A stretch of 64,000 bases of DNA from Nostoc sp. T09. Its GTDB lineage: Bacteria; Cyanobacteriota; Cyanobacteriia; Cyanobacteriales; Nostocaceae. The notes under the pieces are model-generated. The model worked only from the letters and a program-made list of their open reading frames with translations, had not been told where the DNA came from and made no database searches. The stretch is taken from contig NZ_MTAV01000210.1 in NCBI RefSeq assembly GCF_002154695.1, forward strand, positions 7,528-71,527, read 5' to 3'. Position 1 is the stretch's first letter; each line of letters begins with the position of its first letter. A program made the translations under genes and the position numbers. This document shows positions 4,151 to 63,975 of this stretch, piece by piece.

Positions 4151-4342
4151 AATATTTTTCTAAAATACTAATGTCAAAAAGTCAATTTTTATTCAAATTT
4201 TTTTTGTTGAATTCCGCATAAAGATATATTAAAATTCATTGCGACCATATAAAAATAAATACACAGCCTAATTTAGGCACTGCCTAGCCCTAAAACAATT
4301 GATCCAAGTTTCATATAGTAAGCTAATCTTGGCAATTTAATC

Positions 4343-5638
4343 ATGAAAATAGCCTTTGTAGTTGGATATTTTCCCGTGTTGTCAGAAACATTTATTCTTA
4401 ATCAAATTATAGGTGCGATTGACCGGGGTCATGAAGTTGAGATTTACGCCTATCAACCAGCTAATACTTCTAAAGTACATCCAAATGTGAAGAAGTATCA
4501 GTTGATGAATCGGACTTTTTATCAACCACATATACCTCCAAATCACTTTTCACGGCTGTCGAAAGCTATCAAATTACTAATTAATAATTTCCATAAAAAT
4601 CCTTTAGTCTTACTGCGATCGCTTAATTTTTTCAAATATGGCAGATGGGCAGCTTCTTTAAGATTATTTTACTCAGTCATACCTTTATTAGAATCTAAAT
4701 CCTACGATATTATCCATTGTCAGTTTGGTACATTTGCTCGTGAAGCTATGATTTGGCGTGATATCGGCGCTATTAAAGGAAAATTGATTACTTCGTTTCG
4801 AGGCTATGATATTACTTGGTTTGTTCATGAAAATGGGGAACAGATTTATGACGAACTCTTTAAGAAGGGAGATTTCTTCTTAGCAAATTGTAAATACTTT
4901 CAAAAAAAAGCTATTCAACTGGGTTGTGATGAACAAAAAATTGTTGTACATGGTTCAGGAATAGATTGTAGCCAATTTCAATTTAAATTAAGGCTTCCTC
5001 CGGGTGCAAATGAGAAAATTTACGTTACTACAACTTGTCGCCTAATAGAAAAGAAAGGCATAGAATACAGCATTCGTGCTGTTGCTGAGGTAATAAAAAG
5101 TTACCCGAATATCGAATATAACATCATTGGTGATGGTTATTTGCAAGTAGAGTTACAGCAATTAATTGAAAAATTAAATGTTGCTGGTCAAATAAAGCTT
5201 TTGGGATGGAGAAATCAGCCAGAAATTATTGAAATTCTTGATAAATCCCATATTTTTATTGCTCCTAGTGTCACAACTCGTGATGGTAATCAAGATGCTC
5301 CTGTCAACACTTTAAAAGAAGCAATGGCTATGGGTTTACCAGTCATCAGTACGCTACATGGTGGTATTCCTGAACTGGTAGAAAATGGAATTTCTGGTTT
5401 TCTGGTTCCAGAACGGGATGTTGATGCGATCGCCGAAAAATTAACTTATCTAATCAAGCATCCAGAAATGTGGTCAAAGATGGGTCAAGCAGGCCGTGCT
5501 TATGTAGAAGCACACTACGATATTAATAAGCTTAACGATGAATTGATACAAATTTATCAACGAGTAAGTAGTCACAATTTACCGCTACTAGAACCAGCTT
5601 TAGCTGAAACCAGAAGGTTGAATTCTCAAGGATATTAA
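4343..5638 (+). CDS. glycosyltransferase family 1 (GT4-type, GT-B fold)
   Basis: 431 aa. C-terminal region has the GT1 signature (EYNIIGDG...LGW...FIAPS...E..P..LKEAMAMGLPVISTLHGGIPELVENGISGFLVPE). Confidence 0.85.
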   Translation: MKIAFVVGYFPVLSETFILNQIIGAIDRGHEVEIYAYQPANTSKVHPNVKKYQLMNRTFYQPHIPPNHFSRLSKAIKLLINNFHKNPLVLLRSLNFFKYGRWAASLRLFYSVIPLLESKSYDIIHCQFGTFAREAMIWRDIGAIKGKLITSFRGYDITWFVHENGEQIYDELFKKGDFFLANCKYFQKKAIQLGCDEQKIVVHGSGIDCSQFQFKLRLPPGANEKIYVTTTCRLIEKKGIEYSIRAVAEVIKSYPNIEYNIIGDGYLQVELQQLIEKLNVAGQIKLLGWRNQPEIIEILDKSHIFIAPSVTTRDGNQDAPVNTLKEAMAMGLPVISTLHGGIPELVENGISGFLVPERDVDAIAEKLTYLIKHPEMWSKMGQAGRAYVEAHYDINKLNDELIQIYQRVSSHNLPLLEPALAETRRLNSQGY

Positions 5639-7339: not shown

Positions 7340-7480
7340 GCGTATGTATAGGAATCTGATTTGATTCCTGAATCACTCGTAGGAGAGGGAACAGGGAACA
7401 GGGAACGGGGAACAGAAAACAAGGAATAAAGTTGTACTCAGTTTTGTTCAAAAATCAAATACGAGTCCTGTATTAAATAA
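7340..7480. repeat. dispersed Nostoc-type repeat (copy of the 3915-4040 element)
   Basis: Shares gatttgattcctgaatcactcgtag, the (gggaacag)n tract and ttgttcaaaaatcaaata with the 3915-4040 copy. Confidence 0.6.
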
Positions 7481-17469: not shown

Positions 17470-17745
17470 ATTTCAATATTTTGGAAATAGATATCTATTC
17501 AGGCTGCTATGAGAAGCATTTAAGAATAAAAAATCGATATTTACAGCCTTTTTCCTTTATTTGAGCTATCTATCTCTTCATGGCGCAATATTTTAACTGC
17601 ATGGTCTGTAAATATAGGTTTTTCCTAACTTATACCAATTAAACTAATGATTGCAACACATTTTTGCTTCAAGACGCGATTCATCGCGTCTCTACAGATG
17701 GTCTATTTGTCACATTCTTTTTTCAAATTGGTATTATTTAAAAAA

Positions 17746-17967
17746 ATCGCGATGTTATTGATAAACGTCGCAATGTTATCGATGAACGCCTCGATGTTAT
17801 CGATGAACGCCTCGATGTTATCGATGAACGTCGCAATGTTATTGATAAACGTCGCGATGTTATTGATAAACGTCGCGATGTTATCGATGAACGCCGCGAT
17901 GTTATTGATGAACGCCGCGATGTTATTGATGAACGCCACGATGTTATTGATAAACATCGCGATGTTA
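17746..17967. repeat. tandem array of ~10.5 x 21-bp repeats (unit cgcgatgttattgataaacgt and variants)
   Basis: Strict 21-nt period. Units differ at 4-5 fixed positions (pos 3, 12, 16, 21). All six frames are open across the array (e.g. NIATFIN heptads on the minus strand, MLSMNAS on the plus strand). Confidence 0.9.
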
Positions 17968-18772: not shown

Positions 18773-19717
18773 ATGTCTTCAATTTTTTTGCCTCCTACGA
18801 TACAACCTATCTATAGCGCAATTGCCCAACGATCTGGAGTTGATTTATCTGTACTCCGCCTTGATTGTATGCACCCGTGGGTTAATGGCAATAAGTGGTT
18901 CAAGCTGAAGTACAACCTCTTGGAGGCTAAACAGAAAAATTGCACAACGTTGCTGACCTTTGGTGGTGCTTATTCTAACCATATCTTTGCCACCGCCGCC
19001 GCCGGAAATCTTTTCGGCTTCCGCACTATTGGCATGATTCGGGGAGAGGAGAGATTGCCACTGAACCCGACACTGAGTTTTGCTGTACAACAAGGAATGC
19101 AGCTTTTCTACCTTGACCGCGAGAAATACCGACAACGAAAAACAACAGCATTACATACAGAATTACAGCAACGCTTCGGTGAGGTGTTTATCATTCCTGA
19201 AGGTGGCGGCAATCTCAACGGTGTACGCGGTTGTATGGAAATAGTAAACACGGCAGCATTTGATACTGTATGTGTTGCTTGTGGTACAGGTACTACCTTA
19301 GCCGGAATTATACTGTCGCTGCAAAAAGGTCAGCGCGCCATCGGCTTTCCCGTTCTCAAAAATGGGGCATTTCTCGCGCCGGAAATAGATAGTTGGCTGA
19401 AGAATTACCTCGCCTCTGGTTTCCCAATTGTTAATGAGGCGATGTCTACGACGGGCTACGCCTACGCATCTTGGGAATTAATATGTGATTATCACATGGG
19501 TGGTTATGCCAAGGTGAACGATGAACTATTAATGTTTAGCCAGCAATTCACCCAAGAACACGGCATACCTTTAGATTATGTCTACACTGCCAAAATGTTT
19601 TACGGAGTGATGGATTTGCTCAAGCAGGGATTCTTTCCTGTTGGCGATCGCCTACTGTTGATACACACTGGTGGCTTACAGGGCAATCTCGGCATGGAGA
19701 AGCGGTTGCTTCAGTAA
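18773..19717 (+). CDS. 1-aminocyclopropane-1-carboxylate deaminase / D-cysteine desulfhydrase family PLP enzyme
   Basis: 314 aa. MHPWVNGNKWFKLKYNL matches the PLP-lysine region (..SGNKxRKL), plus TFGGAYSNHIFATAAAG and a C-terminal HTGGLQG motif. Confidence 0.8.
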   Translation: MSSIFLPPTIQPIYSAIAQRSGVDLSVLRLDCMHPWVNGNKWFKLKYNLLEAKQKNCTTLLTFGGAYSNHIFATAAAGNLFGFRTIGMIRGEERLPLNPTLSFAVQQGMQLFYLDREKYRQRKTTALHTELQQRFGEVFIIPEGGGNLNGVRGCMEIVNTAAFDTVCVACGTGTTLAGIILSLQKGQRAIGFPVLKNGAFLAPEIDSWLKNYLASGFPIVNEAMSTTGYAYASWELICDYHMGGYAKVNDELLMFSQQFTQEHGIPLDYVYTAKMFYGVMDLLKQGFFPVGDRLLLIHTGGLQGNLGMEKRLLQ

Positions 19718-19771
19718 TTGAACAGGGTAAGGGCATCTGTTCCCTGTTGCCCGTTCCCTGTTCCCTTTTAA

Positions 19772-27036: not shown

Positions 27037-27106
27037 AATCAACTTTTGCAACTCATCAACTAGCTTTTGCAACTCGCAAACTGACTTTTGCACCATTCTC
27101 AATTAG

Positions 27107-36202: not shown

Positions 36203-36213
36203 AAATTAGTTAT

Positions 36214-36296
36214 TTGTCATTGGTCATTGGTCATTGGTCAAATGACAACTGACAACTGACAACTGACAACTGACAACTGACCACTGACTATTGACA
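36214..36296. repeat. STRR-type heptanucleotide tandem repeats arranged as an inverted pair ((cattggt)3-4 then (caactga)5)
   Basis: ttgtcattggtcattggtcattggtcaaatgacaactgacaactgacaactgacaactgaccactgacta. The two heptamer families are reverse complements of one another. Lies between sbpA and cysT. Confidence 0.85.
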
Positions 36297-37166
36297 ATGA
36301 CTCTATCTCCTTCTTTTGAAGCTGACGGTAAAACTCCCGCCTGGAAAGGATTACTGCAAAAGTTGCGTCAAATTCCCTGGACTTGGCGCATTACTTTGGG
36401 ATACCTCACAGTTATGTTGTTCATCCCCATAACAGCGATGTTTCTCAAAGCCAGTACAGAAACGCCAGCCAGATTTTGGGCGATCGCTACTAGTGATGTC
36501 GCCCTTGCGACATACAATGTAACTTTTCTTACTTCATTATCTGCTGCTTTGCTCAATGGGGTATTTGGGACTCTGATTGCTTGGGTATTGGTGCGTTATG
36601 ACTTCCCGTTAAAACGCATCATTGATGCCACCGTAGATTTACCGTTTGCTTTGCCAACATCGGTAGCAGGTTTAACACTAGCAACAGTGTACAGTAATAA
36701 TGGTTGGATTGGTTCACTATTAGCACCACTGGGGATTAAGGTATCTTTCACTCGTTTGGGCGTATGGGTAGCAATGATCTTCATTTCGCTACCGTTTATA
36801 GTGCGGACAGTGCAACCTGTGCTGCAAGAAATGGAACACGAAATTGAAGAAGCCGCCTGGTCTTTAGGTGCTTCCCAATGGCAGACTTTTTGGAAAGTTA
36901 TCTTACCACCTTTATTTCCCACAATTCTGACTGGTGTAGCCTTGGGTTTCTCGCGTGCAGTTGGGGAGTATGGCTCTACTGTAATTATCTCTTCTAATAC
37001 ACCCTACCAAGATTTAATTGCACCTGTATTGATTTTTCAACGGCTAGAACAGTACGACTATTCTGGTGCAACTGTCATTGGCGTAGTTTTATTGGCAATT
37101 TCCTTAGTACTACTTCTAGCAATTAATTTCTTACAAGCCTGGTCAAGAAGATATGACAGTAAATGA
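36297..37166 (+). CDS. cysT: sulfate ABC transporter permease CysT
   Basis: 6-TM permease with EAA loop ([21 protein letters not shown]). Start taken at ATG 36297 because the track ORF begins at TTG 36291. The last 14 nt overlap cysW. Confidence 0.85.
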
Positions 37167-41346: not shown

Positions 41347-41551
41347 AATTTTATAGATGTTTTTTACTTGTAAAATATTTTTTCAAAAGGAAATATAACT
41401 TCTACTATTTTCTGTTATTCCTGTCAGAATAAATTCCGCTTCATCCTAACCGATTTGTTAACTAATGTCTTAATCACAGAGTAAAAATGCGTATTTCCTC
41501 TGACAAGCAGCCATAGTTCGGAAATGCGATGCCTAGGTTGGGCTGCGCCTA

Positions 41552-41783
41552 CGCAATTGCCATTTTTGATACTACAATTGCCATTTCGGAGACTACAATT
41601 GCCATTTTCGATACTACAATTGCCATTTCTGAGACTACAATTGCCATTTCTGAGACTACAATTGCCGTTTCGGAGACTACAATTGCCATTTTCGATACTA
41701 CAATTGCCATTTTTGAGACTACAATTGCCATTTTTGAGACTACAATTGCTATTTCGGAGACTACAATTGCCGTTTCGGAGACT
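41552..41783. repeat. tandem array of ~11 x 21-bp repeats (unit actacaattgccatttcggag and variants), 200 bp upstream of the MVP start codon
   Basis: Strict 21-nt period. 16 conserved nt (actacaattgccattt, containing palindromic caattg) plus a 5-nt variable tail (cggag / tcgat / ctgag / ttgag). All frames are open (TTIAISE heptads on plus, MAIVVSK on minus). Confidence 0.9.
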
Positions 41784-41899
41784 TTAATTCATAAAAATTC
41801 TTACCTTCCTTCTGCCTGTCGGGAACAGGGAACAGAAAAATTCCACTTTCATGCTTGACTATGAAACTTGTTTCATCGGGACTGCCTTCTGCCTTATTT

Positions 41900-42391
41900 T
41901 CAAACTAAATCTAATTTTTTACTCATTTTTGTAACTGGAACAATTATCCCTTTCTTTAACTGATGCGGTGCCCTGGCGATAAAAGTAAAACCCAGCCGTG
42001 AATAAAATCCTTCAGCATACAGGCTAGCATTTGTAAGTACTTTATCTATACCTTGCTCGCTGGCTTGATAGCAAAAATGATTAACTAAAACTCGCCCTAT
42101 GCCTTTTCTTTGGTATTTGGGATGCACATATAAAGCTATGAGTTCATCCACAATATAACTAGCAAACCCCACAAGCACATCATCTTCGACAGCTACCCAG
42201 AAATGTTCTGCTTTCAGACTCTTCATGATATTTGAACCATCAGGCTGATCACGATAATTTCGCCAAGCTAACAGTTCTTTCTGAGAATAGAAGGTTGCTG
42301 GTAGTGCTTTTATGGCAGCAATATGAATTGCACTAATATCCCATGCATCTGTTTCTTGTGCAGGTCGAAGAACTATTTCGTTAGCGCTCAT
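41900..42391 (-). CDS. GNAT family N-acetyltransferase
   Basis: 163 aa with motif A (VHPKYQRKGIGRVLVNHFCYQASEQG). Confidence 0.75.
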   Translation of the reverse strand: MSANEIVLRPAQETDAWDISAIHIAAIKALPATFYSQKELLAWRNYRDQPDGSNIMKSLKAEHFWVAVEDDVLVGFASYIVDELIALYVHPKYQRKGIGRVLVNHFCYQASEQGIDKVLTNASLYAEGFYSRLGFTFIARAPHQLKKGIIVPVTKMSKKLDLV

Positions 42392-43917: not shown

Positions 43918-44324
43918 TAATAGTATTAATTGCCTATTTTTAAATAGGCTACGAGGCCAGAGGTGAAGCAGTGCAGTCTTGGAGAGCAACTGCTTCACGC
44001 GAAGGCTTTAGTTATGGAAGATTGCCTGTGATTGACTAGCTTGAAAATAGAGACTAAGAGCTAGAAAATAGGGATGTAAGCAATATATTTGAGGTAATAA
44101 TTCCTGCAAATATTGACGATTGACCATTGACTATTGACTGTCAACTAATCACTTAGGTATTAAATTAACCACAATTCATTGCTAATTACCAACCCAGTGT
44201 CGTAACAACAATTAACATCATAACCTGGCAGGATTGAAGCTGGGTTGTGTATAAAAAGGTTGACATTTTCTATTGATTTAAAGAATTATCTTAGGGAAAC
44301 CTGATAGCCACTTTCGAGGAAACT

Positions 44325-50439: not shown

Positions 50440-50570
50440 GTATTTGTCATTTGTCATTGGTCATTTGTCATTGGTCATTGGTCATTTGTCATTTGTCATT
50501 GGTCATTGGTCAAAGGCCAAGCATTTCTTCCCCCTTGTCTCCCTTGTCCCCCTTGTCTCCCTTGTCCCCG
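50440..50570. repeat. STRR-type heptanucleotide tandem repeats ((tttgtca/ttggtca)n followed by (cccttgt)n)
   Basis: atttgtcatttgtcattggtcatttgtcattggtcattggtcatttgtcatttgtcattggtcattggtca then ccccttgtctcccttgtcccccttgtctcccttgtcc. Lies between convergent gene ends. Confidence 0.85.
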
Positions 50571-59525: not shown

Positions 59526-59579
59526 ATAACAGTCCTGAGTCCTGAGTCCTGAGAATTGTTGATGGTGCGTTGCTACTAG

Positions 59580-62689: not shown

Positions 62690-62830
62690 AAAGGGACAAG
62701 GGAGTGTGGGAGAGGGCGGGAAAGGGTGGGGAGACAAGGAGGACAAGGGAGTGTGGGAGAGGGTGGGGAGAAATGGGACAAGGGAGAAGTAACTAATAAA
62801 TCTTGCTGATTACCTTTTGAGAAATGACTA
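62690..62830. repeat. G-rich heptamer-like repeats plus the shared ~90-bp dispersed element (copy of 31562-31680)
   Basis: gggacaagggagtgtgggagagggtggggagaaat...taataaatcttgctgattaccttttgagaaatgac. Confidence 0.55.
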
Positions 62831-63734: not shown

Positions 63735-63975
63735 GCATTAAAGTTAAAGACTCGTTGGCGAGTATTAAAGACTCGTTAATGGAGTTATTAACCTCATTCG
63801 CGAGTATTAAAGACTCGTTGACGAGTATTAAAGACTCGCTCACGAGTATTAAAGACTCGTCGCCGAGTATCAAAGACTCATTCACGAGTATCAAAGACTC
63901 GTCGGCGAGTATCAAAGACTCATTCGCGAGTATTAAAGACTCGTTAATGGAGTTATTAGCCTCATTCACGAGGAG
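63735..63975. repeat. tandem array of ~11 x 21-bp repeats (unit gagtat[t/c]aaagactc + 6-nt variable tail), ~200 bp upstream of the ROK gene
   Basis: 15-nt conserved core forming a 4-bp mini-hairpin (gagt...actc), followed by variable hexamers (gttgac / attcac / gctcac / gtcggc / attcgc / gttaat). The array is bounded at both ends by the same diverged unit (ggagttatta[a/g]cctcattc). Confidence 0.9.

Follow-up and report, generated by a model that had tools for sequence, protein, structure and literature searches.

Bacterial variable-number tandem repeat (VNTR) loci, among them the mycobacterial interspersed repetitive unit loci (MIRU-VNTR) of Mycobacterium and the loci used in multiple-locus VNTR analysis (MLVA), consist of head-to-tail intergenic units of tens of bp whose copy number varies between strains. 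Here we describe an array of 21-bp units, designated A1, in a 64,000-nucleotide stretch of the Nostoc sp. T09 genome (contig NZ_MTAV01000210.1, positions 7,528 to 71,527 of the forward strand; hereafter the window, to which coordinates refer unless a compared locus, prefixed L, is named). A1 has these properties in common with VNTR loci, as well as presence or absence between strains, homogenisation within the array and degenerate edge units. Classical VNTR sets have many unit lengths, whereas among the sampled arrays of Nostocaceae with a period of at least 10 bp unrelated units all have a length of 21 bp, bar one 14-bp array; a further difference is that different genera share one unit family, at loci that are not linked. 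We propose that A1 is probably a non-coding minisatellite of the VNTR type, one of a lineage-specific class of intergenic arrays that keep strictly to a 21-bp period and occur in Nostoc sp. T09 and other, related Nostocaceae.

The short tandemly repeated repetitive (STRR) heptamers of heterocyst-forming cyanobacteria occur in the same organisms, likewise between genes, and are abundant in the window, and 21 is three times 7. However, the A1-type unit is 21 nt long without a 7-nt periodicity, the arrays measure 200-340 bp as opposed to 30-70 bp for STRR, and at the other cyanobacterial loci in the sample heptamer arrays, unlike 21-bp arrays, are common. Heptamer arrays near promoters of Nostoc PCC 7120 are reported to modulate promoter activity (bioRxiv 10.1101/2022.06.06.494920), and this is, by analogy, the closest functional precedent for the 21-bp arrays.

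Iterons and par centromeres (the seven 22-bp iterons of R6K; parC of R1 and pSK41) also share features with the arrays, namely direct repeats of ~20 bp or about two helical turns, a conserved core and 4-11 units. They differ in that the arrays described here are chromosomal, about 20 kb apart, each of a different sequence and unstable in copy number. A relation to clustered regularly interspaced short palindromic repeats (CRISPR) had been denied in the initial annotation of the window, and rightly so, as CRISPR repeats measure 24-48 bp and alternate with unique spacers, whereas these units are contiguous without spacers and no cas-like open reading frame (ORF) lies around the array. A full-text literature search found no description of 21-bp arrays in cyanobacteria, though an earlier one may exist.

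Structure and position of A1

The initial annotation, made from the nucleotide sequence, had placed a tandem array of 11 units with a 21-bp period at 41552-41783. Tandem Repeats Finder bears this out (41554-41783, period 21, 11.0 copies, 89% matches, 0% indels, score 341). In codon register, the array opens with a degenerate unit (41550-41570, TACGCAATTGCCATTTTTGAT), continues with ten full units (41571-41780, consensus ACTACAATTGCCATTTCGGAG) and ends with a decayed edge unit (41781-41797, beginning ACTTTAATTCAT). All 10 occurrences of the core motif ACAATTGCNNTTT in the window, where 0.17 would be expected by chance, fall within A1. An invariant 16-nt core, as first described, is contradicted by substitutions in three of the ten full units, two of which have GCCGTTT and one GCTATTT, and by the first unit, which reads CGCAATTG. 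Variants among the units follow an ordered, non-periodic pattern, and unique sequence lies on either side. The period had been equated with three helical turns; at 10.5 bp per turn, 21 bp correspond to two.

A1 is located between genes for a major vault protein (MVP) homologue and a GNAT acetyltransferase (Table 1), 206 bp from the start codon of the former and 117 bp from the stop codon of the latter. GNAT also neighbours the array in Calothrix sp. NIES-2100 (L001) and Calothrix sp. NIES-2098 (L085). The small dispersed repeat that adjoins A1 contributes the ATG for both plus-strand ORFs and has a second copy at 19439-19467, within a PALP ORF, against 0 copies expected by chance; a flank resembling it adjoins arrays in L072 and L085. 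The consensus of the two window copies is GCGATG(C/T)CTA-N5-GGCT(G/A)CGCCTACGC, and the copy at 19439-19467 is an in-frame insertion in the PALP (cysteine-synthase-like) ORF, read ...EAMSTTGYAYA...

Table 1. Coordinates of A1, its surroundings and the other 21-bp arrays in the window
Feature	Coordinates	Strand	Description
A1 21-bp minisatellite	41550..41797	.	degenerate first, ten full and decayed terminal unit
A2 21-bp minisatellite	17747..17967	.	~10.5 units, TCGCGATGTTATTGATAAACG; between PNPOx-like and GNAT genes
A3 21-bp minisatellite	63744..63972	.	~10.9 units, AAAGACTCGTTGGCGAGTATT; two 42-bp composite units
A4 21-bp array	27041..27092	.	2.5 units; directly after Ser/Thr-kinase gene
Major vault protein (MVP) homologue, 874 aa	38722..41346	-	Pfam Vault, Vault_2/3/4, MVP_shoulder; protein 100% identical to that of Nostoc sp. 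T09
MVP-proximal upstream block	41347..41480	-	three-way alignment of T09, NIES-2100 and array-less ZfuVER01; ends ~135 nt from ATG
Small dispersed repeat, GCGATGCCTA-N5-GGCTGCGCCTACGC	41526..41554	+	adjoins A1 left edge
Candidate ORF, 109 aa, TTIAISE frame	41529..41858	+	open in 8/8 A1-family arrays
GNAT acetyltransferase	41900..42391	-	Pfam Acetyltransf_10, _7, _1

Copy-number variation and concerted evolution at orthologous loci

Orthologous arrays are present between GNAT and MVP in Calothrix sp. NIES-2100, with an MVP 95% identical to that of T09 (L001 3524-3771, 11.3-11.8 units, 42-bp super-period), and in Calothrix sp. NIES-2098 (L085 9589-9789, ~9.6 units). The left flank and the right edge of A1 are kept in these arrays, the right edge being GAGACTTTAATTCATAAA in both T09 and NIES-2100, and in the interior different unit variants have become fixed in each lineage. 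Aulosira sp. ZfuVER01 (MVP 94% identical) lacks the array and has a different upstream neighbour, and it shares the ~135 nt before the MVP ATG. A1 is thus passed on at one fixed site in the chromosome, its edges conserved, with a number of units that varies between strains and an interior that is homogenised separately in each lineage.

The other arrays of the window vary in a similar manner. In Nostoc sp. 106C, where the flanking PNPOx is 97% identical, the orthologue of A2 has 5.5-6 units compared with ~10.5 in T09, and this number is repeated in an independent assembly; Aulosira lacks the array, as does N. linckia FACHB-104, where the PNPOx-GNAT spacer is 50 nt. At the A4 locus the 2.5 units of T09 compare with 9.2 in Nostoc sp. 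106C and 9.5 in N. linckia FACHB-104, in each case beside orthologous kinase genes, and the A4 unit matches those of the longer arrays at 15-16 of 21 positions (p <= 0.001). A4 in T09 is thus the short allele of this locus. A comparison of copy number across strains, which the initial annotation had proposed as a check, is therefore positive, with 11, ~11.5, ~9.6 and 0 units of A1 in four relatives and ~10.5 versus ~6 units of A2.

Identity between units is 0.90 within A1 and 0.80-0.81 between orthologous arrays, and for the A4 locus the corresponding values are 0.89-0.90 and 0.64-0.70. Since units are more alike within than between orthologous arrays, the arrays evolve in concert. In A1, replication slippage together with unequal recombination or gene conversion would produce this pattern. 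A1 accordingly combines head-to-tail units of 10-100 bp, strain-variable copy number and concerted evolution, the features by which a VNTR or minisatellite is recognized.

The comparison with Aulosira also bears on the relation of A1 to MVP. The block that ends ~135 nt from the MVP ATG, aligned among T09, NIES-2100 and the array-less ZfuVER01, is likely to hold the promoter and 5' leader of MVP. The initial annotation had assigned the array to the 5' region of the MVP gene, which is correct by position, but A1 sits beyond the ~135-bp block that is shared with the array-less relative. A1 would not be required for MVP expression, given that it lies outside this promoter-proximal block and that a close relative lacks it. 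Its position upstream of MVP is incidental, and a dedicated role as MVP regulator is unsupported. The same observations, a location outside the block and dispensability in Aulosira, leave a phase-variable promoter spacer, one of the roles first considered, without support.

The 21-bp class and its period

Two further 21-bp arrays had been claimed in the window; both are present (A2 and A3), and A1 belongs with them. A1, A2 and A3 lie 206, 278 and 209 bp upstream of minus-strand genes, which in the case of A3 is a ROK-family gene. The apparent common architecture of ~230 bp in length at 200-280 bp from a gene does not extend to related loci, where we found 2.5-16 copies and distances of 5-360 bp. 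Similarly, each unit type is private to its array within the window, yet other Nostocales carry arrays of the A1 unit family at unlinked loci. A shared ancestor for the units of A1, A2 and A3 was considered and rejected, as even the best cyclic alignments among them fail to reach significance once corrected for multiple testing; beyond links within a family, only the comparison of A3 with L080a stands out (13/21, p about 0.02).

The period itself was surveyed in a larger sample. In 193 kb of Nostocaceae DNA, part of which was chosen because arrays were present, arrays of at least 4 copies have periods of 7 (20 arrays), 9 (3), 14 (1) and 21 (14), so that every one with a period of at least 10 has a period of 21 or 14. 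The corresponding periods in 586 kb from other cyanobacteria and bacteria are 7, 8, 9, 10, 15, 29, 38, 43, 66, 72, 126 and 132, with none of 21. The arrays that had not been selected (L080 1172-1364, L084 729-927 and L084 16364-16699) indicate a density of roughly one 21-bp array per 20-50 kb.

In cyclic self-comparisons of the 21-mers, matches at lag 7 are no more frequent than at other lags. The units therefore have no internal 7-nt periodicity and are not visibly triple STRR heptamers, and we rejected an origin from triple heptamers for want of self-similarity at this lag. On the same grounds, the period of 21 and the absence of lag-7 similarity, we agree with the initial annotation that these are not STRR heptamers.

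Spread of the A1 unit family

Units of the A1 family (ACTACAATTGCYRTTTYNGAK) form arrays at loci unlinked to GNAT-MVP in other Nostocales. At a second locus of this type the array lies between a small membrane-protein gene and a gene of 142-149 aa beside a ParE/ParD pair, with 11.3 units in Nostoc carneum NIES-2107, 9.4 in Calothrix FACHB-156 and 10.4 in a metagenome-derived contig. L071 carries a family array of ~12 units, some of them inverted, beside a putative rsmE-like gene, which we take to be such from its sequence, without a family search. In L072 an A1-family array is fused to a related array of the KAISANS type. Among 83 units of the family G10 and C11 are invariant, and the palindrome CAATTG is embedded in the core.

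Units from the A1, A2 and A3 arrays had no match in IMG/VR, and blastn with all three units and tblastn with A1 found none among the PLSDB plasmids. With neither plasmid nor viral matches for the three units, we rejected a mobile or viral origin.

The gene order at the second locus (L069 5197-7487 and L073 8037-10056) is a C-terminally membrane-anchored protein of 130-154 aa, the array, a protein of 142-149 aa without a Pfam match and a ParE/ParD-like pair. Two small proteins of this neighbourhood contain the motif ...EEIIDEIY...

Strengths and weaknesses of the minisatellite hypothesis

As 21 bp are two turns of B-DNA, all units face one side of the helix, and any effect is most likely to be architectural; action through a coded product is less likely. 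One can envisage that the strong planar curvature predicted for the A1 family would provide a platform on one helix face for nucleoid or regulatory proteins, and that divergent or adjacent promoters might be modulated in this way. We estimated curvature with a dinucleotide-wedge model, as the predicted ratio of end-to-end distance to contour length. This ratio is 0.07-0.30 for A1-family arrays, 0.62 for the A1 orthologue of NIES-2098 and 0.24 for A3, with a window background of 0.89.

Several observations weigh against an interpretation of A1 as a simple minisatellite with at most an architectural effect. First, the predicted ratios are 0.94 for A2, 0.76 for L084a and 0.79 for L084b. With A1 family and A3 predicted to be curved and these three not, curvature is not the common denominator, and we rejected it as a shared property of the arrays. 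Secondly, a single period of 21 is not predicted by neutral slippage, and there are no heptamer remnants that would link the units to STRR arrays. Thirdly, A1-family units at unlinked loci are 0.82-0.84 identical to those of T09, although they come from different genera, which matches the closeness of orthologous arrays. Such a match points either to constraint on the unit sequence or to recent dispersal or conversion. Fourthly, all but one of the eight arrays of the A1 family fall between 9.4 and 12.4 units, and this narrow range, taken together with the similarity of units across loci, hints at constraint on both sequence and length. Finally, the frame reading TTIAISE is the only one that is open in all eight A1-family arrays, each of the others being broken at least once, and in six of the eight it has a start codon (ATG in T09, NIES-2098, NIES-2100 and L072; TTG in L069 and L070). 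The constant period of 21 and the conservation of the A1 family at unlinked loci are both unaccounted for by the minisatellite interpretation.

Neither a strict period shared by unrelated units nor a family that is ~82% identical at unlinked loci in several genera is what neutral slippage predicts. A more far-reaching hypothesis holds that Nostocaceae possess a genome-wide system of two-turn-phased arrays of ~10 units each, the unit families of which are selected and reused across genera. We rate this as rather unlikely. Were it true, there would be at least 100 loci per genome should the sampled density (one per 20-50 kb) hold, and one would expect dedicated array-binding proteins, architectural or regulatory, or translated heptad peptides. 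The arrays would then amount to a level of chromosome organisation that has not been described before, or to a new micro-protein family. A mechanism or function behind the period and the conservation of the family, should there be one, would also bear on the abundance of repeats based on 7 nt in heterocyst-forming cyanobacteria, which has long been unexplained.

Alternative explanations

The arrays could be platforms for sequence-specific DNA-binding proteins, similar to iterons or centromeres, with one site per unit on one helix face and a cooperative filament that regulates or insulates adjacent promoters. We regard this as unlikely. Its appeal comes from the A1-family unit itself, where a conserved core with the palindrome CAATTG is followed by a variable segment, from the period of exactly two helical turns, from the family's recurrence, ~82% identical and with 9-12 copies kept, in several genera and at loci that are not linked, and from the orientation of the arrays, which at both independent loci that can be judged face a divergently transcribed gene 200-360 bp away. 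However, no candidate binding protein is encoded beside any array, the neighbours being GNAT, MVP, PNPOx, ROK and kinases, and as the 64-kb window holds three unit sequences that are unrelated, each would have to be recognized by a protein of its own. Arrays have from 2.5 to 16 copies, one strain may carry an array that its close relative lacks, and some units of the L071 array are inverted. Near the arrays of the window there are no rep, par or cas genes, and neither DnaA boxes nor an AT-rich unwinding region, and neither A1 nor the other arrays have the adjacent cognate Rep or Par gene or origin that characterizes iterons and par sites. An iteron-like array, which the initial annotation had listed among the possible roles, is thus unsupported, as no rep or par gene is close by.

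Another suggestion was that A1 encodes a small heptad-repeat protein of ~90-140 aa, in which plus-strand TTIAI[S/F][E/D] repeats form a long amphipathic helix, with analogous peptides from the other arrays. We consider this quite improbable, despite the behaviour of the TTIAISE frame described above. The ORF is annotated as a gene in three genomes, its Ala codon varies among GCC, GCT and GCG without a non-synonymous change, and the best AlphaFold2 (AF2) model is a single helix with a predicted local distance difference test score (pLDDT) of 81. Against this, pLDDT scatters from 81 to 28 over the five models and the predicted template modelling score (pTM) is 0.41. Open frames are at chance level: random 21-mers of the window placed in tandem leave on average 3.96 of 6 frames open, and the initial claim that all six frames are open does not hold, the numbers being 4/6 for A1, 4/6 for A2 and 2/6 for A3. 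A crude ratio resembling that of non-synonymous to synonymous substitution (dN/dS) is 3.6 in the TTIAISE frame. Entropy by codon position in the A1 family is 3.3, 4.4 and 6.1 bits, that is, higher at position 2 than at position 1, with a wobble excess of P = 0.08, and the other arrays have neither a consistent codon-phase bias nor a frame with consistent constraint. The ends of the ORF are no better conserved. A canonical start is absent from L071 and L073, the ATG of T09 and NIES-2098 is part of the dispersed repeat and has been lost in NIES-2100, which uses another, the C-terminal tails encoded after the array are unrelated between orthologues, and we found no convincing Shine-Dalgarno sequence. 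Moreover, the heptad read from A4 orthologues differs between genomes (IASLKVT versus RVSFAFA).

Database searches point in the same direction. No Pfam or NCBIfam model matched the array ORF at the curated cut-off, and the only ORFs with close homology to it, three in number and annotated 'hypothetical', themselves lie on arrays of this kind. A phmmer search of 1.84 billion representative proteins returned 290 matches, which were heterogeneous low-complexity heptad ORFs of many sources and uninformative. A1 therefore has no conserved start, stop or flanks, no purifying selection and no described family such as a gene for a heptad protein would be expected to have. The small coiled-coil protein of the initial annotation is left unsupported by open frames at chance level, the dN/dS-like value, unconserved starts and tails and the lack of a family match; the ORF is most likely not translated, and we infer the same for A1 as a whole. 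We had also considered a shared heptad of the form h-A-x-h-x-p-p (A1 IAIFDTT, A2 minus-strand IATFINN, A3 LASIKDS), which was rejected, since strands must differ, other arrays read SPSELES or RVSFAFA and there is no signal of selection. A coding array of the same period does exist. The C-terminal AERQRAE repeats of a Uma2-family protein (L070 1269-1377) have in common with A1 a 21-nt period, equal to 7 codons, and a frame that is open throughout, but they lie inside a Pfam-supported gene, whereas the intergenic arrays are without conserved starts, stops, tails or purifying selection.

It is very improbable that A1 is transcribed and acts as RNA, either as a repeat small RNA (sRNA) or sponge, or with 11 motif copies as part of the GNAT 3' untranslated region or the MVP 5' leader. 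Plus-strand A1 RNA is more stable when folded than shuffled sequence (z = -4.8), but the excess is accounted for by the self-complementary CAATTG that each unit contains. Directly upstream of A2 a promoter-like site, with an extended -10 element, lies on the plus strand, and each A3 unit forms a 5-bp hairpin with a variable loop; yet the stem is disrupted in A3 by uncompensated TCG-to-TCA changes, and A1, A2 and A3 have no structural theme in common. Rfam gave no match at gathering score anywhere in the window, which also contains no tRNAs, no terminator is predicted at the arrays, and the orthologues change freely in sequence and length. Promoter and terminator scans gave counts not informatively above shuffle expectation. 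Nor does A1 resemble tandem sRNAs of the NsiR1 type, with units of 21 nt as against transcripts of ~60 nt that have their own promoter and terminator. The structured RNA that had been entertained at first finds no support, given the empty Rfam result and a folding excess that is trivial from the CAATTG palindromes.

That A1 or its copy number is an assembly artefact is scarcely credible: short-read unitig assemblies do break in A1, A2 and A3 and the exact unit count of T09 rests on one assembly, but homologous arrays with the same edges are found at this locus in AP018178 and AP018172, two near-complete genomes that were sequenced independently, the A1 family is present in further genomes, and the variant units are ordered and non-periodic between unique flanks. 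Short-read (Logan) contigs from the T09 sample end inside the three arrays with edge sequences identical to the window, and such ends are the behaviour of real tandem repeats in unitig assemblies.

Practical implications and further observations

Whatever their function, the arrays have practical consequences. They give rise to spurious 'hypothetical protein' calls, three of them in public databases, and they break short-read assemblies. They are also ready-made MLVA markers for typing strains of Nostoc and Calothrix.

Some of the sampled arrays have individual features. In N. linckia FACHB-104, L084 16364-16699 comprises ~16 units of 21 bp (TTCGCCTTCTGAACTCGAAAG) with super-periods of 42 and 84 bp; it carries an annotated gene of 108 aa and overlaps the start of an LplA-like gene, and its sole open plus frame reads SPSELES. 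L076, from a 2.17-Mb contig and with no called gene that has a Pfam match, contains two 21-bp arrays of the same unit (4197-4409 and 4887-5057). Of the two, the array that was examined falls within a small ORF, the product of which has a hydrophobic segment at the N-terminus and ten copies of ETSLAFK, and arrays of 45 and 130 bp are close by.

The window also contains STRR-type heptamer arrays at 7386-7426, 19737-19766, 36212-36301, 44111-44139, 50442-50512 and 59531-59553, with the units AGGGAAC, CTGTTCC, ATTGGTC, CAACTGA, TATTGAC and AGTCCTG across these arrays. The heptamer array at 50442 scores also as a 21-bp higher-order repeat. A perfect hairpin with a 9-bp stem, resembling repetitive extragenic palindromic (REP) elements, lies 55 bp from A2 (17672-17691, AGACGCGAT-TC-ATCGCGTCT). 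Between SDR-family and ROK genes there is a G-rich imperfect direct repeat (62718-62786, period ~37, 1.9 copies, GGGAAAGGGTGGGGAGAAAGGGGACAAGGGAGTGT).

Full-length homologues of the MVP that neighbours A1, usually annotated as 'colicin uptake protein', are widespread in filamentous cyanobacteria (loci L001-L068). Homologues with 67-84% identity are also found in metagenome-assembled genomes labelled Thiotrichaceae/Thiomargarita, Beggiatoa-like, Anaerolineae and Chloroflexaceae. In Aulosira sp. ZfuVER01, the PNPOx locus has a Tn7-like transposition module a few kb away (L082 1-5116), which comprises TnsA-like/rve, TniB and two TniQ genes.

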